A stretch of DNA of 64,000 nt from an uncultured Micavibrio sp. (GTDB lineage: Bacteria; Pseudomonadota; Alphaproteobacteria; Micavibrionales; UBA2020). Below, piece by piece: positions 17,616-63,547 of this stretch. Made by a program: the position numbers and the translations under genes. Location: contig CAZHOE010000001.1 in NCBI GenBank assembly GCA_964534445.1, positions 38,493-102,492 on the forward strand, in the 5' to 3' direction. Within the stretch, counting starts at the first letter, position 1, and every line of letters begins with the position of its first letter. The notes below the pieces were generated by a model. The model had not been told where the DNA came from and did not search any database. It saw only the letters and a list, made by a program, of their open reading frames with translations.

Positions 17616-17646
17616 TTGACAGCTATACCCCCCTAGAGTATATAAT
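17616..17646 (+). promoter_or_regulatory. sigma70-like promoter of csoR-copA
   Basis: TTGACA at 17616-17621, a 17-nt spacer, then TATATA/TATAAT at 17639-17646. Confidence 0.45.
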
Positions 17647-17661
17647 ACCCCTATAGGGTAT
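17625..17661. promoter_or_regulatory. two CsoR-type operator palindromes
   Basis: ATACCCCCCTAGAGTAT (17625-17641) and ATACCC-CTATA-GGGTAT (17645-17661, perfect 6-bp arms). The centres are 20 bp apart and overlap the -10 region. Confidence 0.55.
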
Positions 17662-17683
17662 ATTTGTCAAGGAGGCTTCGAGC

Positions 17684-17992: not shown

Positions 17993-18035
17993 ATTCATAT
18001 ATTAGAAATAATTTTCAGGTTACGGGAGAATACAC

Positions 18036-20502: not shown

Positions 20503-21405
20503 CTATATATAATCAGTAAGTGTTAATTGCAGGATTTTTGTTGAAATAGAGTAAGAGGCTTCAATCTGGGTTTCCAGATTTGTTAGTCTTACTAAAACTT
20601 CAGCGAGATCGACTTCTTTGATATCGCTGATTAATCCATCTAGTGTATTCAGTTCCTCTGTATTTTTGGTGATCTTATTATCTACCAGTGTTGCTTTGGA
20701 AGAAATATCGCTTAGCATGTTTGACATCTTGTCCAGGCTCTCGTCTAGCAAGCCGTAGGCTTCCTCCAGCGCAGCGGAATCCGACGAATTATTCAAGACA
20801 AGATTTAATGCACGCAACGCTTCTTCAAATGCCGGATTGTCCGCAGTGATGCCATATTTAAGGCTTGTATTCTCACTGATTTTCACGCTTTGTATATAAT
20901 CTCCGCCTTGGTAGTAGTCTGTATCTGCTGTTGAGCCGACCGTTGCGCTGCTGTAGTCTGCATCGCTCAGGTCTACAGGTATCGTATTTGTCGCTCCACC
21001 GCTAAACAAGTAATTGCCAGCCAATTGCGTGTTGAGTAGCGCGGCCAGCTCCGCCTGCGTACTTTCTGCATCTGCAGCAATCGTGCCATCGTCGGAGGCG
21101 CTTCCCATAGAGCTGCTTAAGGATGTTTTAAACGATGACATAAGTTCAATCATCGATTGGACAGATGAATACATACTATTCAATCGATCAAGGGCTGTCT
21201 GGTTTGCTTCTGAATTACTGGCAAGTTCACTATATTCTGTTTCAAGCGTCAGAAGTTTTTGTGTGGAACTGGATATACCTTGGTAGCTGGAAGATTTTAA
21301 TCCAGAAGATTCCTGCTCCACGCCCTTGGCATATTCACTTTGAAGGCGCATAAGGCTCCTGTTGATGGATACGCTTGTTGCATATGTTGCAATCCGATCT
21401 ACCAT
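20503..21405 (-). CDS. flgL: flagellar hook-associated protein 3 FlgL
   Basis: Flagellin-like N-terminus MVDRIATYATSVSINRSLMRLQSEY. Immediately downstream of flgK. Confidence 0.8.
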   Translation of the reverse strand: MVDRIATYATSVSINRSLMRLQSEYAKGVEQESSGLKSSSYQGISSSTQKLLTLETEYSELASNSEANQTALDRLNSMYSSVQSMIELMSSFKTSLSSSMGSASDDGTIAADAESTQAELAALLNTQLAGNYLFSGGATNTIPVDLSDADYSSATVGSTADTDYYQGGDYIQSVKISENTSLKYGITADNPAFEEALRALNLVLNNSSDSAALEEAYGLLDESLDKMSNMLSDISSKATLVDNKITKNTEELNTLDGLISDIKEVDLAEVLVRLTNLETQIEASYSISTKILQLTLTDYI

Positions 21406-21420
21406 TTTCTATACCTACTG

Positions 21421-23151
21421 TTAATTAACTGCGTCGAGCAAGCTATCGAACATATCCTGAACGGTCTGCAGCAGTGTTGCGGCTGCCTGATATTGGTTTT
21501 CAAGTGTTGTTAGCCGGATGGTTTCTTCGTCAATATTGACGCCCTGGCTGTTGTCAAGAAGGTCTTTTGTTTGGTTGTATACCGAAATGGCCACGTCACT
21601 ATTGCTTTCTGCTGTGGAGGCGCGTACCGCGATATCGGATACAATCTGCCCGGCATATGTCAGAATATCTGTCGTGCGTGCGCCAAAGTTTCCTGCTGCT
21701 GAAAAGCTTGTATTGTTATCTAATACGCTAGATAAGGCTGTTGCCGTGGTGCCATCACCAACGAGCGTGCCAGCGTCGCCGACGCTTAGTGCGGAATCTG
21801 CCGAAAGGTAGGAAGTACTCAGGTAATCAGCGTTATCCTGCAAATAGTCACTGACGCTAAGGCTTGCTGCCGTCGTGCCTGAGAGCAGGTTATTAAAACC
21901 GAACGAGGCTGAAAACCCCTGACCATTTATGCTACTGTCCATTTCGTTAATCGCGATGCCCATGTCGGTGTTGTCTGCAGAAATAACGAGTGCCCCGTCA
22001 CTGTTGAAGCTTGCGGATATGCCGCTAATGCCCTCAATTGCGGCGGCAAGATCATCGTATGTGCTATATGTACTCAAATCCAGATCGGCATAGGATTGTA
22101 CTGTACCAGTTGCATCAACAACGGCAATTCGCACGGTGCCGGTTGCGTTCAAGGCATCACTGGTATTCGCAATAAGTGTTTCGGCGGTCAAGATAGAGCG
22201 AGCCGGATAGGCTGTACCGCTATTGCTAACGCTGTTTATCGCTTCCGCGACAGTGCTGGCGAGTTCATCCAGTTTTTCTTGCTCTTCAACAAGATAAACA
22301 TCACGTATTTGAATGAGGCCACCAAGTGTGCCGCCGGAAAGGCTCTCGGTAATATCCTGCCCGTTCAGGTATATGCCAGATAACGAACCGGGGTATGTTG
22401 TTTGGTCATTGACTGTATACGTCGCATCAAAAGAAATCGTATGTGCCTGTGAATCCAGTAGGGTTTGACCGGAAGAGGTATAAATCCTCAGCTCGTTATT
22501 GCTTGTAAAATAATAATTCACATCTGTCATTTCCGACAGTTCTAGCAGTTTAGCCATTCGCTCGTCTTCCAGATCTGCGGTGCTGGCGCCTTGAGCGGAA
22601 AGCGTGGAAATGCTGTCGTTAAGCGTTTTTAAAGTCTCTAGCGTATCATTGATATCGTTAACAACTGTTGCAATTTCCTGATCAGCCTGTTGTCTGTATG
22701 TTTGCAATGTATCAGACATACTATTCAGGCTATCGGTAAATGTAATTGCGGCGTTTACAACTTCTGTTTTTACGCTGTTCTCTTCCGGGCTGGCAGCAAG
22801 CTGTTCGAGCGCTGATTGTAAGCTGTTGAGTGTGCTGCTAATTGAGCTGCTACTATCGGTGCTGCCTGTAGCGCTACTATAGAGAGAAAGATACTCCTCA
22901 ATTTTCCCGTAGAAGGCGGATTCACTGTAATCACTGATGGCGGCAGAGTAAAGGCTGGATGAAATGCTGCCAACCGTTATGCCTCCGCTGGGGCTGGTGA
23001 CGCCATTGCCGGTAATATAGGATGTTTCATAGGTTTTTGTCGTATAGCCTGCCTTATCCGCATTGGTTACGTTTGAGGAAACGGTCGACATTTGCGCCGA
23101 TATGTTTTTCAGGCTTGCAGATGTTGTATATAGCGACGTGGTTAATGACAT
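21421..23151 (-). CDS. flgK: flagellar hook-associated protein 1 FlgK
   Basis: N-terminus MSLTTSLYTTSASLKNISAQMSTVSSNVTNADKAGYT and C-terminus ..TLLQTVQDMFDSLLDAVN. Confidence 0.85.
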   Translation of the reverse strand: MSLTTSLYTTSASLKNISAQMSTVSSNVTNADKAGYTTKTYETSYITGNGVTSPSGGITVGSISSSLYSAAISDYSESAFYGKIEEYLSLYSSATGSTDSSSSISSTLNSLQSALEQLAASPEENSVKTEVVNAAITFTDSLNSMSDTLQTYRQQADQEIATVVNDINDTLETLKTLNDSISTLSAQGASTADLEDERMAKLLELSEMTDVNYYFTSNNELRIYTSSGQTLLDSQAHTISFDATYTVNDQTTYPGSLSGIYLNGQDITESLSGGTLGGLIQIRDVYLVEEQEKLDELASTVAEAINSVSNSGTAYPARSILTAETLIANTSDALNATGTVRIAVVDATGTVQSYADLDLSTYSTYDDLAAAIEGISGISASFNSDGALVISADNTDMGIAINEMDSSINGQGFSASFGFNNLLSGTTAASLSVSDYLQDNADYLSTSYLSADSALSVGDAGTLVGDGTTATALSSVLDNNTSFSAAGNFGARTTDILTYAGQIVSDIAVRASTAESNSDVAISVYNQTKDLLDNSQGVNIDEETIRLTTLENQYQAAATLLQTVQDMFDSLLDAVN

Positions 23152-23558
23152 GTAACGGCCTCGTTATCTTCTTGCGTGGAGGCGGCATAAATCTTGCCTT
23201 TAATACTCTCGATCCGTTTGGATCTGTTTTGCAAATCATTGACAAGCAAAGACGTATTAATTTTGAAAAGTTTTCTGAGAACATTTACTTCGCTGATCAA
23301 GTAGAGGCGCAGCCAAGTGTTTCTGGGGGCATGTTTTTCTACCAGTGGGAATATTGTTTTTGCGTCTTCTTCAAAGCGCTTTACCAAGGTGTTCTTTAAA
23401 TGAAATTGTTCATCAACCGTAAAGGTTTGATTATGCAGAAAATTTTCATTTTCGGTGCTGATAATGATAGAAATTTCCCGGCAAAGATCGATAAAGCATT
23501 CGATCTTGGAAACGACATTCATGGGTATATCCTTGATGATGGCTTCTGGCAGTCTCAT
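23142..23558 (-). CDS. hypothetical helical protein, possibly a FlgN-like export chaperone
   Basis: Sits directly upstream of flgK, overlapping it by 10 nt. Helical, with no diagnostic motif. Confidence 0.35.
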   Translation of the reverse strand: MRLPEAIIKDIPMNVVSKIECFIDLCREISIIISTENENFLHNQTFTVDEQFHLKNTLVKRFEEDAKTIFPLVEKHAPRNTWLRLYLISEVNVLRKLFKINTSLLVNDLQNRSKRIESIKGKIYAASTQEDNEAVTCH

Positions 23559-23884
23559 TCATGTTCTCCATTGCGGGTTGATTTTTTAGAGGCGCGGGGC
23601 GCTAGGGAGGTTTGTTTCGCATAGGCTCGGCAGGCGTTGTTATGCTCTTCGATCTGTTGCATATCTTGTTCGATCTTATCCAGATCTCTTAAAAGCTGAT
23701 CTCTCCAAGTGAAAAGTGTCTTGGTAAGATCTTTGAGCAGTTTTTTGACCTCGGCATCCTCGCGGGCCAGATCTTTTAGGGAAGAAAGGCGCTCTCTCTT
23801 TTCGCTGAGCGGGATGATGTTCCGAGCAAGGTCTCCATCCTGGCTCCGGTTGATTTTTTTTATCATGCTTAAAACGTCTTGCAT
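23555..23884 (-). CDS. hypothetical coiled-coil protein of the flagellar cluster
   Basis: 109 aa, charged and helical. ATGA overlap with the next ORF. Lies between flgE and flgK. Confidence 0.35.
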   Translation of the reverse strand: MQDVLSMIKKINRSQDGDLARNIIPLSEKRERLSSLKDLAREDAEVKKLLKDLTKTLFTWRDQLLRDLDKIEQDMQQIEEHNNACRAYAKQTSLAPRASKKSTRNGEHE

Positions 23885-23888
23885 GTGA

Positions 23889-25160
23889 TTACCTTGTGGC
23901 GCTGATTAGGGTGTCAAACATTTCTGTGGTCGTTGTAATGACTTGCGATGCGGCAGAATAAGCCTGCTGTGCAATAATCATTCTGCTGAATTCATCGGCC
24001 GTGTCTGTGGTAGAAAGCTCCAGGGCGCTGCTCGTGATACTGCCTGCCGAGCCGTCTCCGGGATTGTTAAGTGTTACGCTACCGGCGGCTTCGTTCTCGT
24101 CATAGATTGTTCCGTTGACCTGCGTCAGACCATTCGGGTTAGAAAAGGTTGCAATCTGGAGCTGGTAGAGCGCAATACTCATACCGTTCGTGAAAGATGC
24201 GCTGACAAGGCCGTCATCGCTGATATCAATGCTACTCAACTCGCCATAAGTCATGCCGTCCTGTGTTGCAGTGAAGTCGTCGATCTGTGGCGTGTCGGCG
24301 TTTGATGCATATTGTGTAACGTTTTCAACGTTCAACGCAAAGGTGCTATCTGCACCGCCAGTAGATAGCCCGCTGATGGAGATTTCTAGCGGGTCTGGCG
24401 TAGTCGTGGCAAGGCTGCCATCGGTATTAAATGTCAGGGTCAGTGTGTTGGGGGAGATTGTTCCGCTGCTTGAGCCAGATGAGTTTGTCTGGTACGGATC
24501 ATCTAATGATACTTCCCATTCATTTTCATTGGTGGTTGATTTTGTCCAAGTCATGCCGACCGTATGGCTTACGCCAAGGCTGTCAATGACTTCATAAGAT
24601 GTCGTATAGGTGGAGCCGTCCTCGGCATCGGCAGGTAAGTTCGCGTTGAGGCTGACTTCTGTCGTGGCTTTGGCCGTACCGGAAATTTCATTCACGTCGA
24701 TCAGTTCAAGGGAACTGAGCCCGCTTGCCGTAGACAGTACATTTCCCTCCGCGTCTGTTGGCTGTCCCATAAGATAATAGCCTTCACTGTTGACCAGATA
24801 GCCATCTGCATCTGTCGAGAAGCTACCATTGCGCGTGTAGTTATAATCAGTGGAGGTTGTATCATCCGTGCTGCCTGTCACCACGAAGAAGCCATCACCA
24901 CTGATGGCAAGGTTGGTGTTGACGTCGGTTGCCGAGACCGAGCCCTGGCTGTACATGTTCTGGAAGATGCTATAGGTCACACTACCGGAAGCGCCAGAAG
25001 TAGTTCCACCTGCGCCAGTTACAAGGGATTGGAACGAGACATCGCTTGTTTTATATGCCGTGGTGCTGGCATTGGCGATGTTTTGGGATACGGACGAGAT
25101 AGCGGCGCTTTGCGCGGACAATGCAGAGACTGCTGTATTCAGGGCACTTCCTAAGCTCAT
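23889..25160 (-). CDS. flgE: flagellar hook protein FlgE
   Basis: N-terminus MSLGSALNTAVSALSAQSAAISSVSQNIANASTTAYK. C-terminus MIIAQQAYSAASQVITTTTEMFDTLISATR. Confidence 0.9.
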   Translation of the reverse strand: MSLGSALNTAVSALSAQSAAISSVSQNIANASTTAYKTSDVSFQSLVTGAGGTTSGASGSVTYSIFQNMYSQGSVSATDVNTNLAISGDGFFVVTGSTDDTTSTDYNYTRNGSFSTDADGYLVNSEGYYLMGQPTDAEGNVLSTASGLSSLELIDVNEISGTAKATTEVSLNANLPADAEDGSTYTTSYEVIDSLGVSHTVGMTWTKSTTNENEWEVSLDDPYQTNSSGSSSGTISPNTLTLTFNTDGSLATTTPDPLEISISGLSTGGADSTFALNVENVTQYASNADTPQIDDFTATQDGMTYGELSSIDISDDGLVSASFTNGMSIALYQLQIATFSNPNGLTQVNGTIYDENEAAGSVTLNNPGDGSAGSITSSALELSTTDTADEFSRMIIAQQAYSAASQVITTTTEMFDTLISATR

Positions 25161-25190
25161 GACTTTACTCCTTAAAATATAGAGGTCTTT

Positions 25191-25889
25191 TTAGGACCCT
25201 TGGTAAATTGTTGTGACCTCGTTGGACGAAAAGCTGTAATCACCTGCTTGCAGGGTAATATTGCCCGAGCTATCCGTTTCGATGGTTTCAACTTTCATTT
25301 TTGCGGAAATGTCGGTTGCGACTTCATTACCATCTGCGTCTGAGGCAGCGAGAACGAGTGTCAATGCATCGCCATTTTCCAACCCTTCGTAGTCGTCAGC
25401 ATTTAGGGTAAATTCATATGTACCGGCAGAGGTGCTGCCCATATCAATCGTGTCGATAACATTACCGTTTTGATCCTGCACTTGCAGGGTCAGGTCGCTG
25501 GCGCTTTCTTCCAGAGCATATGTCCAGGTTGCAGAGCCTTCTTGGATCACGGATGAGCTGCTCTCCACATCAACGGTGGCACCCATAAAACTTAAAGCGG
25601 AAAAACTGGATGAGCTGCTGACTGCGGAGGTCAATTCATCAAGCTTTTCATTCGTCTCGATTTGCTGCTCTAGAGAAGAATAAGAAACCAGCTGATTGGT
25701 AAACTCTGTCGTATCGACTGGTTCCAGGGGATCTTGGTTTTCTAATTGTGTCAGCAGAAGCTTCAAAAACATTTCCTTGGTTTCGGCAGCTTCTTCTGCA
25801 GCAGTACTTGTTGTCGTGCTCGACGCCGCAGAGGCTTGGGAACTGGCAAGGCTGGTTTGGCTAGATACGAGTGATATGTCATAAGACAT
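25191..25889 (-). CDS. flgD: flagellar hook capping/assembly protein FlgD
   Basis: MFLKLLLTQLENQDPLEPVDTTEFTNQLVSYSSLEQ. Confidence 0.9.
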   Translation of the reverse strand: MSYDISLVSSQTSLASSQASAASSTTTSTAAEEAAETKEMFLKLLLTQLENQDPLEPVDTTEFTNQLVSYSSLEQQIETNEKLDELTSAVSSSSSFSALSFMGATVDVESSSSVIQEGSATWTYALEESASDLTLQVQDQNGNVIDTIDMGSTSAGTYEFTLNADDYEGLENGDALTLVLAASDADGNEVATDISAKMKVETIETDSSGNITLQAGDYSFSSNEVTTIYQGS

Positions 25890-25959
25890 GCGTCTTCTCC
25901 TAAGGTCTATGCAGCATGTTTGGCTGCGTTAACCTTTCACACGGGACAGGTATAGCTTT

Positions 25960-25993
25960 GGGGCGCAGAAAAAAACTTTTTTTCGTGCGCCCC
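25960..25993. other. long palindrome GGGGCGCAG-A7-C-T7-CGTGCGCCCC in the divergent flagellar promoter region
   Basis: GC clamp GGGGCGCA/TGCGCCCC plus A7:T7 pairing. Lies between flgD (-) and fliC (+). Confidence 0.4.
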
Positions 25994-26065
25994 ATTGTCA
26001 TAGGCGATGCGTGTAAGAGGGTATGGAGGGGATTCATCCTCTTGGGCGCATCTCCTTTACAGGTG

Positions 26066-26081
26066 TTAACGTTTTGTTAAC
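26066..26081 (+). promoter_or_regulatory. CtrA box TTAA-N7-TTAAC upstream of fliC
   Basis: TTAACGTTTTGTTAAC, about 40 nt upstream of the fliC ATG. Confidence 0.5.
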
Positions 26082-26118
26082 GTCCTGCACACGTAACAGG
26101 TATGAAAGGGAAAATGCT

Positions 26119-26937
26119 ATGCCAGTTATTGCAACAAACACGGCAGCAAATACGGCTTTGCTGTACTTGAACAAAAACTCAGAAGCACAAAGTGACTCGC
26201 TTGCGAAACTTTCCAGCGGTTCTAATATCGTGAAAGCATCCGATGATGCGGCGGGTCTTGCCGTATCGACGCGCTTGCAATCCGATATTACAGTATTGGA
26301 GCAATCCTCTAAAAACGCAACGCAAGCACAATCCGTTCTTAATACAGCAGATGGTGCGTTGTCGAACGCAGCTGATATTCTTCAGCGTATGAAGTCTCTG
26401 GCTGCGCAGGCGCAATCCGGTTCTGTAGACGCTGATTCCCGTGCATATATCGATGCGGAATATCAGCAACTAGTTGAGGAATTGGACGCAATTTCAACCT
26501 CTACCCGCTTTAATGGTACGAATCTTTTAGATGGTACGTACAATGAAACATATCTTGTCGGTACGGATGCCGCGACCGATAGTATTGATGTGGATCTGAG
26601 TGGGGTTGACGTATCAAGTACCACATTGGGTGTGACGGGCGATCTGACGACATCTGCGAACGCGGAAACCGAATCTGCAGCGATTGATACGGCACTCGAT
26701 TTGATCTCCGCAGCCCGTGCCGATGTTGGCGCGCTTGGATCTCGTTTCGACTTCCGTAGCGATATCATCAATACGTCCATTGAGAATCTGGAAGCCGCCA
26801 AGTCTTCCATAGTGGATGTTGATATTGCCTCCGAGCAGACCAACTATACCAACGCCCAGGTTCTGACGGAAACGGCGATCGCGGCGTTGTCTCAAGCGAA
26901 CGACATGAAAACGTCTCTCTTGAACCTTGTCAAGTAA
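26119..26937 (+). CDS. fliC: flagellin
   Basis: The ATG at 26119 follows AAGGGA. N-terminus MPVIATNTAANTALLYLNKNSEAQSDSLAKLSSGSNIVKASDDAAGLAV. C-terminus ..LSQANDMKTSLLNLVK. Confidence 0.9.
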   Translation: MPVIATNTAANTALLYLNKNSEAQSDSLAKLSSGSNIVKASDDAAGLAVSTRLQSDITVLEQSSKNATQAQSVLNTADGALSNAADILQRMKSLAAQAQSGSVDADSRAYIDAEYQQLVEELDAISTSTRFNGTNLLDGTYNETYLVGTDAATDSIDVDLSGVDVSSTTLGVTGDLTTSANAETESAAIDTALDLISAARADVGALGSRFDFRSDIINTSIENLEAAKSSIVDVDIASEQTNYTNAQVLTETAIAALSQANDMKTSLLNLVK

Positions 26938-26941
26938 ACGC

Positions 26942-26982
26942 AACCCTGAGGGCGCATCTTGTGGCCCTCAGGGTTCTTCTTT
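26942..26982 (+). terminator. intrinsic terminator after fliC
   Basis: 12-bp stem AACCCTGAGGGC/GCCCTCAGGGTT followed by CTTCTTT. Confidence 0.7.
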
Positions 26983-26998
26983 GTAAGAGAGACAGGAA

Positions 26999-28708
26999 AT
27001 GGCTGAAACAATTTCAACGGGAAGTGTTGCGCAAACGGGTAGTCGTACATATATTGTGGGGACGGCATCAGGTATTGATACGACGGCGTTGGTTGATGCC
27101 GCATACGCGCAAAAGACGGCTGTCGCTGATAGTATTGACGTAAAAATATCTGATAATACCGATAAAATATCCGCCTATACAGACTTGCAAAGTCTGACGG
27201 AAAGCCTCCAGGCTTCGTTGGAAAGTTTGAAGTCCTATTACGGAACTACGACGGCCGATGAAAGCATCTATGATACGAAGATGGCTTATATCGCGACCTC
27301 CGATTCAAGTGTTAACACAGATAATCTCCTATCAATGTCCGTCGATGATGATGCGGAAAATGGATCGTATCAGGTAACAATTGAGCAAGTCGCAACGGTG
27401 ATGAAGGTTGCGTCTAACAGCCAAACTTCAAAAACAGATGCTTTGGGGATTGAAGGGGATTTTGCGATTGGTCTGGGGGACGGAGAGAGCGTCACGGTTA
27501 CGGTTTCTGCGGATCAGTCACTTGAGGATATCGTTTCGAGCATTAACGCACTCACAGAAGATTCTGGCGTTTCCGCCTCCATTATTAAGACAGGAGATTC
27601 TTCCTACAGCCTTGTTTTGGCAGGCCAGAATACAGCAGAAGAAATTAGCTATGAAAGTCTTTCCGGAGATGATGTTTTCTCCGCAATCGGGTTGATCGAT
27701 GAAACTGGAAGCTTTGTCAATGTTACGCAAGCCGCGCAGGAGGCGATTATCACGATCGACGGGTTGCAGGTAACAAGCTCCACAAATGTGATAGAGGATG
27801 CGATTGAAGGGGTTACGTTTTCCCTGGTAGGCGCGAGCCCTGGTACAACGATGACGCTGGATATCGATTACGATTATAGTGGCCTGAAGGACGCAATCAC
27901 GTCTTTTGTGGAGGCCTATAACGCCCTCAGGGAATTTGTCATCAACCAGTCGTCGATGACGACGGATGAAGAGACCGGCGAAACGGAAACAGCAACGCTG
28001 TTTTCGGATACCATCATGAAATCCCTTTCCAACGAGCTTTCCAATATCGTTTCTACATTATACGCCTCCGGCAGTTTGTCGACTTTGGCGAATATCGGCA
28101 TTACATATGATGAAAATAACTATCTTGAGATTTCGGACGAAACAGCCTTGAACAACGCGCTTTTATCAAACTATGAAGATGTTCAGGCACTGTTTCAAAC
28201 AAGTGTTGAAATCAGCAGTGATAGTTTGTCTGTTTTAAGGAACGAGACGTCATCGGACAGCCTGAGTTTTGTGCTGGATATCGAAGTAGATGATACGGGG
28301 GCGATCACGTCAGTGTCTGTCAACGGTGATGAGAATGCCTTTACGGTCAGTGGTACGCGTCTTATCGGGCAGACCGGAACGGTATATGAAGGCCTGACAC
28401 TTGTATACTCCGGAACGGAGAGTGCTTCTGTGAGCGTGGAGGTGACCCAAGGTCTGGCAGATCGCCTTTATAATGCCATGGAAGCTTATACGTCCGACAC
28501 AGATGGTGTGATCCAAGGTGCCATCGAGGATCTGGATGGGCGTAATTCCACCTTGGAGACGGAAGCCAGCCGGATACGCGAACGGGCGGATGCCTATCGC
28601 GAAAAACTTATTGAGAAATATGCCGCCATGGAAAGTAATATTAGTGCCGCAGAGCTATTGTTAAAGCAGGTGCAAGCTATTTTGGGGACAGGTGATGATG
28701 ACGACTAA
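26999..28708 (+). CDS. fliD: flagellar filament cap protein FliD
   Basis: The N-terminal and C-terminal coiled coils (..EKYAAMESNISAAELLLKQVQAIL) and the position between fliC and fliS fit FliD. Confidence 0.85.
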   Translation: MAETISTGSVAQTGSRTYIVGTASGIDTTALVDAAYAQKTAVADSIDVKISDNTDKISAYTDLQSLTESLQASLESLKSYYGTTTADESIYDTKMAYIATSDSSVNTDNLLSMSVDDDAENGSYQVTIEQVATVMKVASNSQTSKTDALGIEGDFAIGLGDGESVTVTVSADQSLEDIVSSINALTEDSGVSASIIKTGDSSYSLVLAGQNTAEEISYESLSGDDVFSAIGLIDETGSFVNVTQAAQEAIITIDGLQVTSSTNVIEDAIEGVTFSLVGASPGTTMTLDIDYDYSGLKDAITSFVEAYNALREFVINQSSMTTDEETGETETATLFSDTIMKSLSNELSNIVSTLYASGSLSTLANIGITYDENNYLEISDETALNNALLSNYEDVQALFQTSVEISSDSLSVLRNETSSDSLSFVLDIEVDDTGAITSVSVNGDENAFTVSGTRLIGQTGTVYEGLTLVYSGTESASVSVEVTQGLADRLYNAMEAYTSDTDGVIQGAIEDLDGRNSTLETEASRIRERADAYREKLIEKYAAMESNISAAELLLKQVQAILGTGDDDD

Positions 28709-56127: not shown

Positions 56128-56844
56128 TTAACTCGGGGCTCTTTTTAGAAGATCAATCATAGCTTTTTTTCTCTTCATTGGTTCCTCTTCGAGCCTGTTG
56201 AAAATTATATGGGGATGTTCAATAAGAGACTTTAACGGCTCTGGAGAGCTTCTTTTATCAATTTTGATGTGAAAAATTAAATTGACGAAGTTTAATTCGT
56301 AAAAGAGCCTGTCGCCATAATGGTCTGTTTTTAACTTTCGTGGATAAAGATTGCCGGTATGCTTTTCAAGTCTAAATGCAGAGAAGCTATATTCATCAAA
56401 GTCGAAGTCTTTATCGCTTATTAGGTCTTCTTTTATTCTATCTTCATAAGGGCCTAGACTGATTTGAGCGAACTCTGGGAGCCTCGACACAGAAGCTTTC
56501 CACAGTGTGTAGATTAAAAATTGTTTAACTGCCTTTTTATATTTCCCATCAAGTTGGAAAGCAACCTCATCTTTTTTATCGTTAAACGGGATAAGGTTCT
56601 TCTCGAATTGGTGAAGCAGAATCTTGGCAGCTTCTGAATCTATATCTTTGAAATCATCTTCGCATTTTCTGCATAAAATTTTATTATCCCATGAGCCTGT
56701 ACGCCTTCTTTTGGGGTGCTGACCAAGGCCGTATATTTTGCGGTCATTTTGTCCGTCGTGGTTGAAAAAAGCTTTGGGTATGATATGGGATTCCGCAAAA
56801 GTGGGGTCGGGTATACCGCACCACCTGCATTGTACAGTTTCCAT
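56128..56844 (-). CDS. AT-rich orphan with an N-terminal CxxC..H..CxxC (HNH-like) module
   Basis: Start taken at METVQCRWCGIPDPTFAESHIIPKAFF..ILCRKCEDDF. The longer ORF-track start would overlap the upstream gene. Confidence 0.5.
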   Translation of the reverse strand: METVQCRWCGIPDPTFAESHIIPKAFFNHDGQNDRKIYGLGQHPKRRRTGSWDNKILCRKCEDDFKDIDSEAAKILLHQFEKNLIPFNDKKDEVAFQLDGKYKKAVKQFLIYTLWKASVSRLPEFAQISLGPYEDRIKEDLISDKDFDFDEYSFSAFRLEKHTGNLYPRKLKTDHYGDRLFYELNFVNLIFHIKIDKRSSPEPLKSLIEHPHIIFNRLEEEPMKRKKAMIDLLKRAPS

Positions 56845-56887
56845 TATAAATTGTCCGCTCTGTCCAAGGTTATATGCGGTCTCAATA

Positions 56888-58057
56888 TTAAATCCTAACC
56901 TTCTCCGGCACGATCGCTTTGGCGATTTTCTGGTTGTAGCTGGCGACTTCTTCTGCGGCAACGCCATTGGGCGGGGCGAGCATTTGCATGGGGGTGATGG
57001 TTTTTCCGTCGCCCTCTGCACGGTTGATCGCATTGGTCAGGCTGTATTGTACGATCTTGGCAAACTGGCTGAGGTTTTCATCATGCGTAATGTAATGCGG
57101 CAGTTCGTGATAGCTTTTGATCATCGTCCATGACGGAATGAGCGGCTTGATCTTTTCCTTCCACGTTTTACCGTCGCGCATGCGCCATTCAAATTTCTCG
57201 CGTGTCACGGCGGCAGAAATAAACGCGCTGGTGGCCGACAGTGCCTTGATATTCAAATTACGTGCAAAGCGGGCGAAAAGGGTTTTGAGCGGACGCCAGA
57301 TGCGGTTCTTGGCGCGGATGATGCGGTCATTGCTGGCGACAAGGTACAGCGTCGTAAAACGGTCTTTTTCCTTCGTCGGGCGCGACACGTTGCCGGTGGA
57401 AACCAGCGCGACCTCGTGCAGCACGTCGCGTGCCTGATCGGCCGTATAGCCGATTTTTTGCATCATTTTCATACTGGCGTTAAAACATTCCTGCGCCACA
57501 ATCGTCCCCGCGCTATAGGCAAAGAAAGTGATGTTGCGCAAATTCTTTTTGGCTTCGTCGGCGGGCAGGGGCGTGCCGGTCATCTGCCCGTTGCCGTCAA
57601 AACCGAAGTCCTTCGCGACCAGCGGCATGATCACGGCCTGCGCCAGATTCTGCGCGGGCTGGGAGGCGCGGCTGCCCGGCATGACGTTATAGGCCGCCAT
57701 GTTAAAAATATTCGCAAGACTGGTATGCGACCATGTGTAGAGATCCACGGGTTTGTCGGCATTGCGGATGCGGCGTGCTTCGGCAGGCGCAGGCGTGCTG
57801 CCGTCTGCGCCCATGGCCACAGGTTTCTGTTCCACTGCCGCATCATTGGCGGGCAGGTCATCATGGCCCGGGCGGTTGTGCATCATTTCTTCCAGACGCT
57901 TCAGCGCGCCGGCGATATAGCCGGGCTGGTCATCCGTTGTGAAATAGCCGGAGAGGAAAATAACGCTCGGCTTTTCGATGCGCAGATCCGTCAGGCTGAT
58001 GTCGTGCAGTTGTGATTTGCCGCTTGCATCGCGGGTACGTTGCCACAATTTGGCCAT
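56888..58057 (-). CDS. hypothetical protein, possible alpha/beta-hydrolase-like (389 aa)
   Basis: FFAYSAGT resembles a nucleophile elbow. Nothing else is recognisable. Confidence 0.5.
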   Translation of the reverse strand: MAKLWQRTRDASGKSQLHDISLTDLRIEKPSVIFLSGYFTTDDQPGYIAGALKRLEEMMHNRPGHDDLPANDAAVEQKPVAMGADGSTPAPAEARRIRNADKPVDLYTWSHTSLANIFNMAAYNVMPGSRASQPAQNLAQAVIMPLVAKDFGFDGNGQMTGTPLPADEAKKNLRNITFFAYSAGTIVAQECFNASMKMMQKIGYTADQARDVLHEVALVSTGNVSRPTKEKDRFTTLYLVASNDRIIRAKNRIWRPLKTLFARFARNLNIKALSATSAFISAAVTREKFEWRMRDGKTWKEKIKPLIPSWTMIKSYHELPHYITHDENLSQFAKIVQYSLTNAINRAEGDGKTITPMQMLAPPNGVAAEEVASYNQKIAKAIVPEKVRI

Positions 58058-58204: not shown

Positions 58205-58279
58205 ATGATAAACGACGTGTCCCTTATCGCCTGCGTGGCGGCCTATAACGGCCAGAATTATTCCCCCCAAGGGGAATAA
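58205..58279 (+). other. 24-codon mini-ORF in the tyrS leader (speculative leader peptide)
   Basis: MINDVSLIACVAAYNGQNYSPQGE. Two TAT codons, the second inside the 5' arm of terminator 1. No SD. Confidence 0.2.
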
Positions 58280-58288
58280 CGTTTTTTT
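58258..58288 (+). terminator. intrinsic terminator 1 in the tyrS leader
   Basis: 9-bp stem TTATTCCCC/GGGGAATAA followed by CG and T7. Confidence 0.65.
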
Positions 58289-58308
58289 GTGCCTTTTGGC
58301 ACCTTTTT
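58289..58308 (+). terminator. intrinsic terminator-like hairpin 2 in the tyrS leader
   Basis: GTGCC-tttt-GGCAC followed by CTTTTT. Confidence 0.45.
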
Positions 58309-58363
58309 CATCATCAAATTCGGTTACAATATTCTCACGGGTTAAGGAGTGGGGCATAGCGCC

Positions 58364-60445
58364 ATGAGCGATCATATCAACGTCATTCTTAAACGGTTCG
58401 AGCGCACCTCGGACCAGTTTTTCTCCAAAGGCGAATTCCGCGCCAAGCTGCGGTCGGGCAAAAAGCTGCGCATCAAATACGGCGTGGATGTGACCGCGCC
58501 GACGCTGCACATCGGCCATGCGGTCAACCTGTGGCTGCTCCGCAGTTTGCAAAACATGGGGCACAAGGTGGTTTTCGTCATCGGCGATTTCACCACGCGC
58601 ATCGGCGATCCCGACGGGCGCATGGAAACGCGCCCCGTGATCCCGCAGGACGAGATCGAGCGCAACGCCGAAGAATTCATCAAACAGGCCAAGATGGTCT
58701 TGCGTTTTGATGATCCGGAGCTGCTGGAAATCCGCCGCAATTCCGAATGGCTGGATAAAATGCCGATGCAGGAGTTTATGAGCCTGCTGTCGATTGTGAC
58801 GCATAAACGCCTCTTGTCACGCGATATGTTCCAGCTGCGCATGGCGGCGGAGCAGGATATCTACATGCACGAGATTATATACCCCGTGCTGCAGGGCTAT
58901 GATTCCGTGGCGATTGAATCGGATCTGACGATTATCGGCTCCGACCAGTTGTTCAACGAAATGATGGGCCGCCTGTTTCAGGAACGCCTGGGGCAAAAAC
59001 CGCAAACGATCATCACCACCAAAATCACGGCGGGGATCGACGGCAAGCTGAAACAGTCCAAAAGCATCGGCAATTACATCGGCCTTGCCCATTCGCCGCG
59101 CGATAAATTCGGGCGGGTGATGAGCATCCCCGATGTGCTGATCGAGGAATACTTCCGCATCTACACCGACATCCCGCTCGACGAGATCGACCGGATGAAA
59201 GACCTGTTCAATCACAGCCCGCGGGAAGCCAAGCTGAAGCTCGCCTATGCCATCGTCGGCCGCTATCACGGGCACGATATTGCCGTGGCCGAGCGCGAAT
59301 GGTTCGAACATACGGTTTCCAAGGGGCTCGTGCCGGATGATATTCCGGAACTGGCCATTTTGAACCCGCGTCAGGAATTGCAGGAACTGGTCTTTCAGGC
59401 CCGTCCCGGCAAGAGCAAGAGCGATTCCCGCCGCCTGATCACACAGGGCGCGGTCGAAATCAACGGCGAGAAAAAGCAGGACCCCGAAGAAGAACTGGTT
59501 TTGCGCACCAACGACGTTTTGAAGGTCGGCAAGCGCAACTGGTTCCGTATCGAGATCGTGCATCTGAACGAGCTGGATACCGAACAGCTGTCGATGAAGC
59601 CCATGCGCGTCGAAGACGTGGACATGATCCAGCAGTTTTTGCCGGAATGGGAAATCGTCAAGCACCTGTCGCGGCCGATGCCGGCCAAGGTTATCAGCGA
59701 AGTCGCGCGCGATGTGTTCCGCCGTATCCTGATGCAGCCGGAGCCGAAGGATGACTGGCTGTGGAAAATCTCCGCCAAGCGTGATCCGGATAAAGTCATC
59801 GGCGTGGCGCACCTGCGCCGCGACGGCGATACCGCCAAGCAAAGCCTGTGGATCAACCCGGAGGAAAAAGGCAAGGGCTACGCCAAGGAAGCCATTGCCG
59901 CCGTCACCGTGCAGGCGTTCAATTCGCTGAGCTTTGATAAAATGATTTTCGAAGGCGCGCTGCCGCATGCCGGCGAGCCGCAGGAGCTGGAGATATTGAA
60001 AGAACACTTCATGTTCATGGAGGAAACCTTCCGCAACCGCGAAAATCCGGAAGGCATTTTCGGTTTCACCAAAGACGGGTGGGAGCGCATGAAGGAATGG
60101 TGGCTGAAGCACCGCCCCGATGCCAACCTGCCCAGCAAGCACCGCCGTAACGAAGCGCGTCTGGATAAAATCGAGGATGCACACGAAGAGCGTCTGGAAG
60201 ATATCATGGAACGCTTTGCCGCAAAACGCGAGGTAAAGAAGGAACTGGTGATCGAGGAGCATCTGGAACAAAAACAGGAAGTGATCGCGGAACTGACGAG
60301 CGAGAAAGCGGAGATCGAGGCGGAGCATGAAAAGAAAATGAGCTTTAATGACGCGATGGCCAAAACAGCCGCCCCGCCAAAACGCCCGCCGGTGAAGCTC
60401 AAACTGCCCCAGTTGCAAACGCCCAAACCGCGTGGAAAGACTTAA
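58364..60445 (+). CDS. tyrS: tyrosyl-tRNA synthetase fused to a GNAT-like domain and a charged C-terminal tail
   Basis: HIGH (TLHIGHA), KMSKS variant (KLKQSKS) and S4 domain (SRRLITQGAVEINGEK..WFRIEIV). From ~59566, a domain paralogous to the downstream GNATs (FLPEWEIVKHL, VIGVAHLRRD, KGKGYAKEA). From ~60110, an E/K-rich tail ending KRPPVKLKLPQLQTPKPRGKT. Confidence 0.85.
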   Translation: MSDHINVILKRFERTSDQFFSKGEFRAKLRSGKKLRIKYGVDVTAPTLHIGHAVNLWLLRSLQNMGHKVVFVIGDFTTRIGDPDGRMETRPVIPQDEIERNAEEFIKQAKMVLRFDDPELLEIRRNSEWLDKMPMQEFMSLLSIVTHKRLLSRDMFQLRMAAEQDIYMHEIIYPVLQGYDSVAIESDLTIIGSDQLFNEMMGRLFQERLGQKPQTIITTKITAGIDGKLKQSKSIGNYIGLAHSPRDKFGRVMSIPDVLIEEYFRIYTDIPLDEIDRMKDLFNHSPREAKLKLAYAIVGRYHGHDIAVAEREWFEHTVSKGLVPDDIPELAILNPRQELQELVFQARPGKSKSDSRRLITQGAVEINGEKKQDPEEELVLRTNDVLKVGKRNWFRIEIVHLNELDTEQLSMKPMRVEDVDMIQQFLPEWEIVKHLSRPMPAKVISEVARDVFRRILMQPEPKDDWLWKISAKRDPDKVIGVAHLRRDGDTAKQSLWINPEEKGKGYAKEAIAAVTVQAFNSLSFDKMIFEGALPHAGEPQELEILKEHFMFMEETFRNRENPEGIFGFTKDGWERMKEWWLKHRPDANLPSKHRRNEARLDKIEDAHEERLEDIMERFAAKREVKKELVIEEHLEQKQEVIAELTSEKAEIEAEHEKKMSFNDAMAKTAAPPKRPPVKLKLPQLQTPKPRGKT

Positions 60446-60450
60446 AAGCC

Positions 60451-61038
60451 ATGGCGGATTTGGAAACAGAGCGGCTGGTGCTGCGCCCGATTGTGCGGGC
60501 AGATGCAAAGGCGATCCAGAAACATTTCCCGCATTGGGAGATTGTGAAATATCTGACCAATGCCGTGCCGTGGCCGTATCCCGCCGACGGCGCGGAGAAA
60601 TACATGGATATATATTTGCCCAAGGTGGCGGCGGGTATCGACCATATCTGGGGCATACGGCTGAAGGCGCACCGGGATGATCCGGCGCGCGATGAAGTTA
60701 TCGGCCTTGTGCATTATCATGGCGCGGATCCTGCTGATCCCGCCGATGTGCCGACACGCGGTTTTTGGCTGGCGCAGGATTTTCACGGGCAGGGCTATAT
60801 GACGGAGGCTGTGTTTGCCGTCAATACCTATATCTTCGACGTGCTGGGCGTGGAAAGATTGATCATCAAAAACGCACGCGATAACAAGGGATCGCACCGC
60901 GTGAAGGCCAAAACGGGCGCCGTCTTGCTGGGTGTGGAATCTTCTACCGGTAAATACCTTGGCGATTTTAACGAGCAGGAAATATGGGAGCTGACGGCCG
61001 ATAACTTCCGTCGCGCCAGGGACGGCACCGGAACATGA
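60451..61038 (+). CDS. GNAT-family (RimJ/RimL-like) N-acetyltransferase
   Basis: ETERLVLRP..FPHWEIVKYL..WPYPADGA..QGQGYMTEA. Starts 6 nt after the tyrS stop. Confidence 0.85.
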   Translation: MADLETERLVLRPIVRADAKAIQKHFPHWEIVKYLTNAVPWPYPADGAEKYMDIYLPKVAAGIDHIWGIRLKAHRDDPARDEVIGLVHYHGADPADPADVPTRGFWLAQDFHGQGYMTEAVFAVNTYIFDVLGVERLIIKNARDNKGSHRVKAKTGAVLLGVESSTGKYLGDFNEQEIWELTADNFRRARDGTGT

Positions 61039-61589
61039 ACAAGCTGGATCGCATCGAAACGCAAAGGCTCATCCTGCGCCGCTGGCGGGAGACCGACCGC
61101 GCCCCCTTTGCCGCCATCAATGCCGACCCCAAGGTCATGGAATATTTCAAGACGCCGCTGACCCGCGCCGAAAGCGACAGCTTTATCGACCGTATGGAAG
61201 ACGTGTTCGAGCAAAACGGCTACAGCTTCTGGGCGGTGGAGGAAAAGATCAGCGGCAAGCTGCTCGGCCTTACCGGGCTTGCCCCTGTGATGTTCGATGC
61301 GCCGTTTACGCCGGCGGTAGAGATCGGCTGGCGCATCGCATCCGACAGCTGGGGCAAAGGCTATGCGCCGGAAGCTGCGCGTATGGCCTTCGATATCGGT
61401 TTTCGCTATCTTGATTTGCCGGAGATTGTATCCTTTACCGCCGTCATTAACCAAAAATCCCGCAGCGTGATGGAAAAACTGGGCATGACGCAGGATGTCG
61501 CCGGCAGCTTCGATCACCCGAACCTTCCCGAAGGCCACATGCTCCGCCCCCACGTCCTCTACCGCATGAAAACACCGGCGAAGCATTAG
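61035..61589 (+). CDS. GNAT-family N-acetyltransferase
   Basis: ETQRLILRRW..GWRIASDSWGKGYAPEAA. ATGA overlap with the upstream GNAT. Confidence 0.85.
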   Translation: MNKLDRIETQRLILRRWRETDRAPFAAINADPKVMEYFKTPLTRAESDSFIDRMEDVFEQNGYSFWAVEEKISGKLLGLTGLAPVMFDAPFTPAVEIGWRIASDSWGKGYAPEAARMAFDIGFRYLDLPEIVSFTAVINQKSRSVMEKLGMTQDVAGSFDHPNLPEGHMLRPHVLYRMKTPAKH

Positions 61590-61745: not shown

Positions 61746-62546
61746 ATGAAACGGATTGAGACCGAACGGCTGGTTTTGCGGCCGCTTGCCATGGCAGACC
61801 ATGCTGCTATCCAAAAACATTTCCCGCATTGGGAAATTGTACAGCATTTATCCGGCCATGCCATCAAATGGCCGTATCCCGCCGATGGTGCGCAAAAATT
61901 TTTGCAAAACATCGCGCTGCCCGCCATGGCGCGCGGCGATGACTGGTATTTCGGCATCACCGAAAAGGGCGGGGATGGCGAGGTGATCGGCGTTGTGCAT
62001 TTGCGCCGTGATACGGCATCGGGCAATCGCGGCGTCTGGCTGGCATCGGCGTATCAGGGCAAGGGCTATATGAAGGAAGCCGTCGCGGCGCTCAACGATT
62101 ACGCCTTTGCCGAACTGGGGTTTGAAAAACTGGTTATCAAGAATGCGGAAGAAAACGTGGCCTCCCGCCGCCTGAAGGAAAAAACCGGCGCGCGGCTTTT
62201 GGAAACACGCCCCGCCAGCCACTACCTTGGCGGCTGCCCCGTGCAGGAGATTTGGGAGCTGACCGCCGCCGATTGGCATGCCTATCGCGCCGCACAAAAG
62301 CTGCTGGCGCAACAAAGCCAGCAAAAACAACCGCATCCGTGGCGTTTGCGCGATGCGGCGACAGTCTTGACGGCGCGGCCCGCAGTGCCTATACAGGGGC
62401 ATTGTCAGCCAAATGCCTATCGGGGGATCCGCCGCGCCTATGTCTTATCGGCGGCCTTTAAAAAATCCCGTACGCGTCCGCTGGTGTGCAAACCCTGTCC
62501 TGCCTATCAGGGTTTCAAACCGGTCAGGATGGCGCAGGCGGGCTGA
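61746..62546 (+). CDS. GNAT-family N-acetyltransferase with an atypical ~85-codon 3' extension
   Basis: ETERLVLRP..FPHWEIVQHL..WPYPADGA..VIGVVHLRRD..QGKGYMKEA. The tail after ~62290 is R/P/C/Q-rich and unlike a GNAT. Confidence 0.75.
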   Translation: MKRIETERLVLRPLAMADHAAIQKHFPHWEIVQHLSGHAIKWPYPADGAQKFLQNIALPAMARGDDWYFGITEKGGDGEVIGVVHLRRDTASGNRGVWLASAYQGKGYMKEAVAALNDYAFAELGFEKLVIKNAEENVASRRLKEKTGARLLETRPASHYLGGCPVQEIWELTAADWHAYRAAQKLLAQQSQQKQPHPWRLRDAATVLTARPAVPIQGHCQPNAYRGIRRAYVLSAAFKKSRTRPLVCKPCPAYQGFKPVRMAQAG

Positions 62547-62575: not shown

Positions 62576-63547
62576 ATGCCGTTTTACCGTGGAATTGCCC
62601 AAGAAGATATCGTCAAGTCTATCAACAATGCGATTGACCTGCTGGAAACGCACAGCACGGGCATCGAATGCAAAAAAATGCTGTCGCGTTTGACAACGGC
62701 GGGAGAGAACGGGCAATCCCCCCTTGAAATCATCGCCAAGGCGAAAGATGACAAAGCACTGACCGAAGCCGTCAGCGTATCGGGTGCGGCGGGCGTGTTT
62801 TCGCAATTACGTGATCTGCTGCAGTATCACGCCCATGCCGATACGGATGGCAAGGGCGGCGCGGTATATGACGGCCTTGCCGCATGGGACGGGATGAGCG
62901 CGGCGACCTTTGCCGTTTATACGCCGTTGAACGAAGAAATGGACAGCTGGCTGGCGGCTGCCTATGCCAAGCATATTCCCTTCACGGCTGAAAATACGCA
63001 AAAAATCACGCAGTTTCTGGATGCGCTGGGCGCCGAGCGCCGCTCGAGCCCCGATGCCATTCAAATGGCGAAAGACGGCGCGCTGATGTTTGTGGAGCAG
63101 GCGGCGCTGGGCGATGCAAAATCCATTCGTCAGTCCTTCAAGGAAATGGATCTGCATGAGCGCCATTTGATGACACTGGCGCTGCAGGTGCACTCCGGTC
63201 TTTTCGATGCGCCGCGCAAGGCACCGTCCGCGCTGTCGGGATACGGTATTCATCTGGGCGCACTGGCGGCTCAAGTCAATTTGCATGACCCGTCGGTCGA
63301 GGCGCTGCGTTTGAAAATGGATGAAGTTCTGGCACCGTTTTATGAAGCCGACGAAGTCACCCGAACCGGTCTTGGCATGATCACGGAAGATCGCAAGGAA
63401 GTCGGCATCATGTTCGTTGCCACCCGCCGCGCGGCGGAAGCGGTAGCCGCGGCCATGCCCGACCAGACCATTCTGGATTATAAAGGCCAGCGCGTGCTGC
63501 CGCCGGGTACGCCTGCGATGCCGAAAAACGGCGGGTTCAAGCTGTAA
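62576..63547 (+). CDS. hypothetical protein (323 aa)
   Basis: ORF starting at MPFYRGIAQ. No motif recognised. Confidence 0.55.
   Translation: MPFYRGIAQEDIVKSINNAIDLLETHSTGIECKKMLSRLTTAGENGQSPLEIIAKAKDDKALTEAVSVSGAAGVFSQLRDLLQYHAHADTDGKGGAVYDGLAAWDGMSAATFAVYTPLNEEMDSWLAAAYAKHIPFTAENTQKITQFLDALGAERRSSPDAIQMAKDGALMFVEQAALGDAKSIRQSFKEMDLHERHLMTLALQVHSGLFDAPRKAPSALSGYGIHLGALAAQVNLHDPSVEALRLKMDEVLAPFYEADEVTRTGLGMITEDRKEVGIMFVATRRAAEAVAAAMPDQTILDYKGQRVLPPGTPAMPKNGGFKL

Follow-up and report, generated by a model that had tools for sequence, protein, structure and literature searches.

A gene on the forward strand of a 64,000-nucleotide stretch of DNA from an uncultured Micavibrio sp. (contig CAZHOE010000001.1; the window, throughout, is this whole stretch) encodes a tyrosyl-tRNA synthetase (TyrRS) joined in frame to a domain derived from the Gcn5-related N-acetyltransferases (GNATs). 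The complete tyrS::GNAT fusion gene occupies positions 58364..60445 (+; 693 codons plus a stop). Its architecture is clade-wide, conserved and new to the literature as searched, and is built from kinds of component that are already known, namely aminoacyl-tRNA synthetases (aaRSs) with appended domains and GNATs of RimJ/RimL descent. The reading we favour, and to which the comparisons presented here would give roughly an even chance, is that the protein is a working TyrRS bearing a selected GNAT-derived module. In the window's protein this module would still bind acyl-coenzyme A (acyl-CoA) and acylate a translation-linked amine, whereas in most relatives it would be non-catalytic; a long helix would serve as a spacer and the C-terminal tip as an anchor.

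Open reading frame (ORF) analysis of the window gives a frame free of stops to 60445 from either a GTG at 58349 or the ATG at 58364. We take the ATG at 58364 as the true start, because homologues open with MSDHIN or MSDRIN and it is preceded by AAGGAG at a distance of 13 nt. Three Pfam domains are recognised in the product: tRNA-synt_1b (PF00579) at residues 32-314 (E 1e-57), SYY_C/S4 at residues 325-379, and Acetyltransf_3 at residues 409-529 (E 1e-12). A full-length AlphaFold2 model, computed from a 102-sequence alignment, has a mean predicted local distance difference test (pLDDT) score of 81, with the synthetase part above 90, and places a linker of ~10 residues between the last strand of the S4 domain and strand beta1 of the GNAT domain. 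A preliminary description of this DNA had read a TyrRS that continues into an extra domain without a stop, and we recover exactly this in one uninterrupted 693-aa gene; the HIGH and KQSKS motifs and the S4-like domain closing in WFRIEIVHL that it had listed hold at the level of individual residues.

Assemblies at NCBI, ENA and Logan contain the identical 693-aa protein; it is encoded by six contigs that independent sequencing runs produced, one of them 2.64 Mb long, and its 90% cluster contains 17 members, nearly all of 693-696 aa. More widely, over 100 protein clusters have the TyrRS plus PF13302 architecture, down to 44% identity and with lengths of 600-824 aa; many fused homologues have no PF13302 match at all in Pfam and, where they are named, they are annotated just as 'tyrosine--tRNA ligase'. 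Surveying GTDB with one genome per species, we identified 32 loci with the fused form, all in metagenome-assembled genomes of alphaproteobacterial type; their labels are Alphaproteobacteria, Micavibrio sp. and Rhodospirillaceae, together with a few that are vaguer or conflicting (Proteobacteria, 'bacterium', Bdellovibrionales, Patescibacteria). Eight of these loci carry two tandem fused genes 2-4 kb apart (L012, L013, L014, L016, L019, L020, L021, L056), and one metagenome-assembled genome has two fused genes on separate contigs (L011 and L023). Full-text literature searches returned no description of a TyrRS-GNAT architecture, so that the preliminary claim of an undescribed arrangement stands for the literature that could be searched.

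Several lines of sequence evidence point to an active synthetase part. The class I TyrRS catalytic domain (residues 32-314; 58457..59305, +), recognised by Pfam, by TIGR00234 and by its match to 1H3E, carries the HIGH motif at H49-H52 (58508-58519, +) and the KMSKS variant KQSKS at residues 230-234 (59051-59065, +), and is followed by an S4-like C-terminal tRNA-binding domain (residues 325-398; 59336..59557, +) supported by Pfam and AlphaFold2. The NCBIfam tyrS model TIGR00234 scores 292.5 bits over residues 12-398 of the fusion, against a cut-off of 113.8, and the match to Thermus thermophilus TyrRS (1H3E, E 5e-75) as opposed to that to E. coli TyrRS (~1e-19) identifies the core as of the Thermus thermophilus type. 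The tyrosine-pocket residues Y39, D82, Y173, Q177 and D180 are present, and we take them to be the equivalents of Y34, D78, Y169, Q173 and D176 of the B. stearothermophilus enzyme. Across 102 fused homologues HIGH, K230, Q231, D180 and other positions of the tyrosine pocket are invariant or near-invariant, with D180 strictly invariant. Unfused TyrRSs 55-61% identical to the core occur in Nitrospina, Candidate Phyla Radiation (CPR)/Patescibacteria, Saccharibacteria, Ktedonobacter, Kribbella and others; these orthologues are ~390-432 aa long, stop a few residues past ...VGKRTWFRV, and in seven other genomes carry KQSKS as well. No GNAT gene was found within 10 kb of unfused tyrS elsewhere. The Thermus-type enzyme (1H3E) and the unfused orthologues thus have the catalytic, helical and S4-like domains, HIGH, the tyrosine pocket and KQSKS in common with the fusion, whereas the fusion runs ~295 residues (GNAT, helix and basic tip) past the S4-like end of the Thermus type. 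We conclude that the synthetase of the fusion should be functional. Separately, a deep branch of the fusion family carries altered KMSKS-type motifs (KQSQR, KQSHR, KQSPR) and one HIGQ. Together with the paired fused paralogues, these altered motifs hint at copies that may have been sub- or neofunctionalised.

In the 306-nt region upstream of the fusion gene lies a short tyrosine-containing ORF of 24 codons, encoding MINDVSLIACVAAYNGQNYSPQGE followed by a stop (58205..58279, +), that has homologous ORFs in relatives; an extended form of 37 codons would begin at 58166 (+), and this 37-aa form is also called by a gene caller (L083, 803-916). Its tyrosine codons are at 58244-58246 and 58259-58261 (+). 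A first hairpin, with stem arms TTATTCCCC and GGGGAATAA of 9 bp around a CCAA loop and with seven T residues after it (58258-58288, +), overlaps the last 8 codons of the leader, and a second, GTGCC-TTTT-GGCAC followed by CTTTTTC, is directly adjacent (58289-58309, +). Both are retained in the minimum free energy fold (z = -2.6). Homologous leader ORFs lie ~140-180 nt upstream of fused tyrS in 12 related loci (L001-L005, L007-L009, L011, L017, L080 and L082). Across the 13 loci, that of the window included, they have 18-24 codons with 2-5 tyrosines (~16% Tyr), the relatives' peptides including MMTKRVQNPAVYYSYSPQGN, MLETTVQNPAVYDYPASYYCGY and MKNLSATYYTTVYSPARGY. When each relative is folded singly an equivalent hairpin appears at the end of the ORF, and an alignment-based consensus fold is uninformative because of register shifts. 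This arrangement looks like a candidate attenuator in the style of pheM-pheST that would read the supply of Tyr-tRNA. The likeness to the leader of E. coli PheRS lies in a short ORF rich in the cognate codon that precedes an aaRS gene and has its end within or beside an intrinsic terminator; the differences are the amino acid and gene (Tyr, tyrS), the host group (Alphaproteobacteria), the position of the ORF stop inside the hairpin, and the lack of an identified antiterminator or of an Rfam match, whether to a T-box or to another known RNA element. We found no paper on a tyrS leader peptide. A Tyr-codon-rich leader that ends in a terminator-like hairpin fits expression tuned to the supply of Tyr-tRNA, as well as a working TyrRS.

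The extra domain, residues 401-585 (59564..60118, +), is assigned to the RimJ/RimL-type GNAT fold by Pfam, AlphaFold2, Foldseek and alignments. PF13302 (Acetyltransf_3) matches it with 49.2 bits against a gathering threshold of 25.4 over profile positions 2-119 only, and the end of this match at position 119 of 138 marks the domain's C-terminal third as atypical; among GNAT-class Pfam models only Acetyltransf_3 and Acetyltransf_1 are reported in the domain. Its pLDDT in the full-length model is 70-88, falling to 52-69 in the last third, and modelling of the isolated domain gave a pLDDT of 73 and a predicted template modelling score of 0.69. The modelled order of strands and helices, beta-alpha-alpha-beta3-alpha-beta-alpha-beta, is that of a GNAT. 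The best Foldseek matches are RimJ/L-like 2Z10, PA3270/1YRE, FdhC, BlmB, SpeG and PA3944 (probability 1.00, E 4e-9, TM 0.55-0.60), and none of the top 50 is a Fem, MprF or L/F-transferase structure. Searches of PDB sequences with the domain or the family profile gave marginal matches (E 0.015-0.04; best for the family profile, 0.015). The preliminary assignment of the domain to GNATs related to the downstream genes is borne out by Pfam, Foldseek and alignments, and the structural modelling it had proposed as a check returned a GNAT fold with low confidence in its last third.

In GNATs the CoA pyrophosphate loop (P-loop) follows the consensus Q/R-x-x-G-x-G/A, and the catalytic residues are S141/E160 in RimL and S553/E572 in MccE (PMC4964394). 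The corresponding loop of the fusion, E500-E-K-G503-K-G505 (59861-59878, +), continues as Y-A-K-E-A and resembles QGKGYMKEA of the neighbouring genes' products; both glycines are kept, the first position is not Q or R, and the standalone neighbours share G-[KQ]-G-Y. At the aligned segment H535-A-G-E538 the RimL/MccE-type serine is absent and there is no asparagine; the family consensus here is A-F-A-H-A-x-A-P, and the assignment of the acidic residue is ambiguous. Of the 113 full-length homologues compared (the window's protein included) 17 have the loop in the G-x-G state, 45 have x-x-G, one has G-x-x, and 50 have neither glycine (for example RTPELMEQ or EDEEILRE). The 17 G-x-G members are drawn from four separate sub-clades ~40% identical in the domain and keep nine polar residues (E428, K462, D463, H483, R486, D487, Q493, H535 and E543) at 94-100%; in the loop-less members conservation at these positions is only 34-68%. 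By these alignments, the window's subgroup is marked by an extra layer of conservation in the GNAT domain that resembles a ligand site. Loss of the P-loop shows no clear pattern with respect to nearby standalone GNATs, as those of the GNAT3 type described below stand beside loop-keeping and loop-less fusions alike.

Beyond the GNAT domain, which is acidic (net charge -6), the protein ends in a tail of 103 aa. AlphaFold2 predicts residues 593-666 (60140..60361, +) to be a long E/K/R-rich alpha-helix of net charge -8, single and continuous over 74 residues (pLDDT 68-81), and residues 667-693 (60362..60442, +) to be a disordered, basic, Pro-rich end of net charge +8 that closes in PKPRGKT. The charged E/K-rich helix and basic Pro-rich end of the preliminary description are retained; its coiled coil is not shown by the model, which gives a long helix only. 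In other lineages of the fusion family the helix is replaced by P/G/Q-rich low-complexity spacers, and a PP.PKP.GK-like terminus is semi-conserved in many homologues.

To measure constraint we calculated the ratio of nonsynonymous to synonymous substitution rates (dN/dS) by the Nei-Gojobori method between the window and two members of its clade, L080 and L082. The ratio is 0.07 (L080) and 0.08 (L082) for the TyrRS core, 0.07 and 0.135 for the N-terminal two thirds of the GNAT domain, 0.004 and 0.06 for its C-terminal third, 0.10 and 0.25 for the helix, and 0.26 and 0.28 for the basic tip. Purifying selection acts on every segment of the fusion. Judged by such constraint, the GNAT-derived domain is functional throughout the family.

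The reading that we favour would bring these observations together as follows. The GNAT-derived module would be functional yet no longer a standard RimJ/L enzyme. In the window's subgroup it most likely still binds acyl-CoA, because the G-x-G loop and the nine polar residues are kept, and would acylate an amino group, with H535 perhaps replacing the lost RimL/MccE serine. The acceptor is probably linked to translation; candidates are the N-terminus or a lysine of a protein and the alpha-amine carried by a tyrosyl compound. Since the loop has been lost in most lineages while selection persists, the family-wide role would have to be non-catalytic, such as that of a dimer scaffold or a partner-binding surface. 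Spacing may be provided by the long helix, and the basic Pro-rich tip may hold the protein to an acidic partner.

A number of our observations weigh against this reading. With regard to catalysis, the motif B of the standalone paralogues, N-x-x-S...KEKTGA, which bears the equivalent of RimL S141 and MccE S553 along with basic residues, has become H535-A-G-E538...LKEHF in the fusion, so that even the window's protein may bind CoA weakly or not at all; the third of the domain that carries this replacement is also the one in which AlphaFold2 confidence is low (~50-69). The G-x-G loop is missing from 96 of the 113 homologues though the domain is equally constrained in them: in a loop-less clade (L001-L004, L017) dN/dS is 0.00-0.20 for the GNAT domain and 0.02-0.11 for the synthetase, so that no canonical CoA loop can be required for the function common to the family. 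Close kinship among 7 of the 17 G-x-G members biases their comparison with loop-less members. With regard to the fusion as the TyrRS of the cell, the search for another tyrS, which found none, covered the 64-kb window, and the tandem fused copies of related genomes bear on whether it is the sole one. As for the leader, a U-run follows the hairpin only in the window, in L011 and partly in L005, and is lacking in several relatives, and we could identify no clear antiterminator.

The strongest of the alternatives is a pure pseudo-enzyme, which we consider a serious but doubtful possibility. The GNAT domain would here be non-catalytic in all lineages and would dimerise the C-termini of TyrRS or dock a partner, with the helix and tip as a tether. 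Disappearance of the P-loop from 85% of the family with purifying selection undiminished is what such a role would give, as is the replacement of motif B, with the catalytic serine of RimL and MccE, both in the window's protein and in the family consensus. The truncated Pfam match (119 of 138 positions), the many homologues that PF13302 does not match and a family profile that barely recognises solved GNATs (best E 0.015) agree with it. Yet retention of G-x-G and of nine polar residues in four sub-clades that are only ~40% identical would be difficult to account for if there were no ligand site, and the C-terminal third has a dN/dS of just 0.004-0.06 in the window's clade.

Self-protection is, in our judgement, unlikely. 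The fused GNAT would in that case acetylate the alpha-amino group of tyrosyl-adenylate mimics that resist hydrolysis, such as Trojan-horse aaRS inhibitors, or of a wrong tyrosine analogue such as D-Tyr, and so shield the attached TyrRS, by analogy with RimL and the C-terminal domain of MccE, which belong to the same GNAT branch and detoxify aminoacyl-nucleotide analogues (PMC4964394, PMC3817062). These RimJ/RimL N-alpha-acetyltransferases resemble the fused domain in fold, in the N-terminal two thirds and in the G-x-G that it keeps; the fused domain differs from them in having neither N-x-x-S nor the K-E-K-T-G-A helix, in the loss of the loop from most orthologues and in never being free-standing. 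A precedent of another kind is the NCBIfam model for IleRS with GNAT (NF040702, ileS_w_GNAT), also a class I aaRS with an Acetyltransf_3-like domain, whose GNAT segment is matched by GNAT2 of the window; its GNAT is located inside IleRS (model positions ~281-419 of 1100) and not at the C-terminus as in the fusion, it concerns another amino acid, and our literature search found no functional study of it. The P-loop of the window's protein and the specificity of the association for TyrRS, fusions to other aaRSs being absent among profile matches, would suit a protective role. Against it, the motif of the MccE S553/E572 type is not kept, the function would be gone in most of the family, and the transporter, peptidase and biosynthetic genes typical of conflict loci are not seen nearby.

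A switch of donor strikes us as quite unlikely. The domain would use the enzyme's own Tyr-AMP or Tyr-tRNATyr, in place of acyl-CoA, to tyrosylate a protein N-terminus or a small molecule, much as in LysX (LysRS-MprF) and fungal ErdS (AspRS-DUF2156), in which an aaRS is fused to a GNAT-fold aminoacyl-tRNA transferase and its product may be used in cis (PMC8913301, PMC2922099). Loss or alteration of the CoA motifs under persistently strong selection would be expected, the TyrRS fusion is obligatory, and tandem fused paralogues could divide housekeeping and transfer roles. The transferase of LysX and ErdS, however, is a tandem-GNAT domain of the DUF2156/MprF kind that uses aminoacyl-tRNA and acts on lipids, whereas the one GNAT of the fusion is of the RimJ/L type and resembles that branch neither in Pfam matches nor in fold; a published survey of aaRS-GNAT associations by Aravind takes in partners of the MprF/Fem type only (PMC2922099). 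Known aminoacyl-tRNA transferases are double-GNAT, Fem/MprF-like proteins with a basic tRNA-binding helix (PMC12945691), and here we have a single acidic GNAT in the acetyl-CoA-dependent RimJ/L branch that hangs from the anticodon-side S4-like domain and, in the window's subgroup, keeps its G-x-G loop. If a switch of donor did take place, it would define a new class of single-GNAT aminoacyl transferases descended from a RimJ/RimL ancestor, tyrosylated N-termini could create an N-degron, and the decay of the CoA motifs under selection as strong as that on the synthetase core would be explained.

N-acetylation of Tyr-tRNATyr by the domain on release from the synthetase, in the manner of TacT, AtaT and ItaT, to throttle translation or make N-acetyl-tyrosine, is in our view very unlikely. 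The fold retains a P-loop and stands physically beside the source of Tyr-tRNATyr, and toxins of the ItaT type demonstrate that GNATs are capable of the reaction (PMC6125619). The domain, however, belongs to another GNAT subfamily (Acetyltransf_3, not the toxin type); it is acidic; 85% of the family would lack the activity; a small adjoining ORF that resembles an antitoxin and matches a family was not found, and the gene's neighbours are Acetyltransf_3 GNATs and ORFs without a family; and a toxin activity permanently fused to an essential enzyme would do harm.

In the Thermus TyrRS complex (1H3E) the S4-like domain grips the anticodon and variable-arm end of tRNATyr, not its acceptor end. By analogy we infer that the GNAT domain is placed at the anticodon side of tRNATyr. 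Its attachment to the S4-like domain, its acidic charge and the missing RimL/MccE serine argue against direct channeling at the aminoacyl end. The preliminary description had suggested channeling or acetylation of Tyr-tRNA; we weaken this to a bare possibility, the CoA motifs being incomplete and the domain acidic and attached to the S4-like side. Its analogy to TacT/AtaT or to Fem and L/F-transferase is replaced by a place in the RimJ/RimL (Acetyltransf_3) branch. Direct binding of tRNA by the GNAT domain was considered separately and judged unlikely, given the acidic charge. Finally, a sequencing or assembly artefact that joined two genes could have made the fused domain homologous to the genes directly downstream, as would a misread stop, and a frameshift, assembly error or lost stop at the junction had been a worry of the preliminary description, but six independent contigs, more than 100 clusters, 32 loci in frame, diverged homologues and a dN/dS well below 1 across the junction rule it out and establish the fusion as genuine.

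Three standalone GNAT genes follow the fusion. GNAT1 (60451..61038, +), an Acetyltransf_3 protein 51% identical to its paralogue GNAT3, starts 5 nt past the stop of the fusion; GNAT2 (61035..61589, +), also Acetyltransf_3 and of a separate subfamily, has a start that overlaps the GNAT1 stop by 4 nt; and GNAT3 (61746..62546, +), which has the full canonical motifs (QGKGY, N-V-A-S, KEKTGA), is the closest relative of the fused domain. The fused domain is 36% identical to GNAT3 over 141 aa (E 8e-28) and 26% identical to GNAT1 over 191 aa (E 2e-18), far beyond chance and confirming the preliminary observation that it aligns with the downstream GNATs from their first residues. Searching exhaustively with a profile of the fused GNAT domain over 1.84 billion representative proteins gave 15 very strong matches, all of them the fused family or fragments of it. 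The next-best matches were GNAT3-type standalone enzymes with FPHW(D/E)(I/V)VKYL, WPYP, NRGFWL, G.GYMTEA and N..N.AS.R.KEKTGA, and no fusion to another aaRS appeared in this search. The standalone FPHW(E/D)IVKYL...WPYP GNATs (GNAT1, GNAT3, P0131-P0140) have TE.L.L.P, PEWEIVK.L, IGV.HLRRD and G.GY..EA in common with the fused copy; they keep complete canonical acetyl-CoA motifs, whereas the fused copy has diverged past beta5. On this evidence the direct evolutionary source of the fused domain is the group of standalone GNAT3-type enzymes, and the simplest history is that tyrS and a GNAT3-type gene beside it were joined long ago in the clade's ancestor. Such a join would have linked a RimJ/RimL-type GNAT gene to a tyrS of the Thermus/CPR/Nitrospina type by loss of the intergenic stop.

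Appended domains are rare on bacterial aaRSs and, when understood, usually tie translation to another process, examples being the aminoacylation of lipids by LysX and of sterols by ErdS, and editing. An entire clade near the predatory genus Micavibrio has an apparently housekeeping TyrRS permanently fused to a GNAT-derived domain, a spacer and an anchor. The loop-keeping and loop-less lineages, all of them under selection, amount to a natural experiment in which catalytic and scaffold roles of a GNAT could be separated. If the domain is active, it would tie acetyl-CoA status or the acylation of an amine directly to tyrosine charging; a working Tyr-codon leader would add a leader-peptide attenuator of tyrS that is undescribed in the literature found.

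The order of genes around the fusion is shared among related loci: recQ, prmB, a cytidine-deaminase-like gene, a variable ORF, orf389 on the opposite strand, the fusion, one to three standalone GNATs and orf353. The divergent neighbour orf389 (56888..58057, -) adjoins the fusion in almost every related locus, and L007, L008 and L022 each have it in duplicate. Downstream, orf353 (62576..63547, +; likely start at M31 of its ORF) is also 3' of the fusion in L007, L008, L019 and L020. Neither product has a match in Pfam, NCBIfam or PDB sequences, and so neither gives a guilt-by-association clue. Between the cytidine-deaminase-like gene and orf389 lies an ORF of 301 aa (56128-57033, -) with only a faint HNH_5 match. 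None of the related loci has a counterpart of it; at this place L080 and L082 hold different, unannotated ORFs (242 and 354 aa, + strand), indicating a variable insertion site.

GNAT3 bears a C-terminal extension of ~80 aa that reaches into the longest version of orf353, whose start would be at 62486, and is also present in its orthologues P0133 (254 aa), L080 (266 aa) and L082 (258 aa). Pro-rich basic tails end not only the fusion (PKPRGKT; 60362-60442) but also GNAT2 (MKTPAKH; 61560-61586), GNAT3 (QGFKPVR...; 62470-62543) and orf353 (PKNGGFKL; 63490-63544), and basic tails of a G-G-F-K/R-like kind occur on standalone GNAT3-type proteins elsewhere (P0132, P0134). These tails may be a common C-terminal anchor or a product of chance.

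No tRNA gene or Rfam match was found in the 64-kb window. Near its start two large pentapeptide-repeat proteins (537 and 1533 aa) are encoded side by side, with overlapping stop and start (221-1834 and 1831-6432, +). A multicopper oxidase and a heavy-metal P-type ATPase are encoded at 15269-20228, and a flagellar cluster with FlgK, FlgE and FliD follows at 20503-28708. The context is consistent with an ordinary chromosomal one, in line with a motile Micavibrio-like bacterium.

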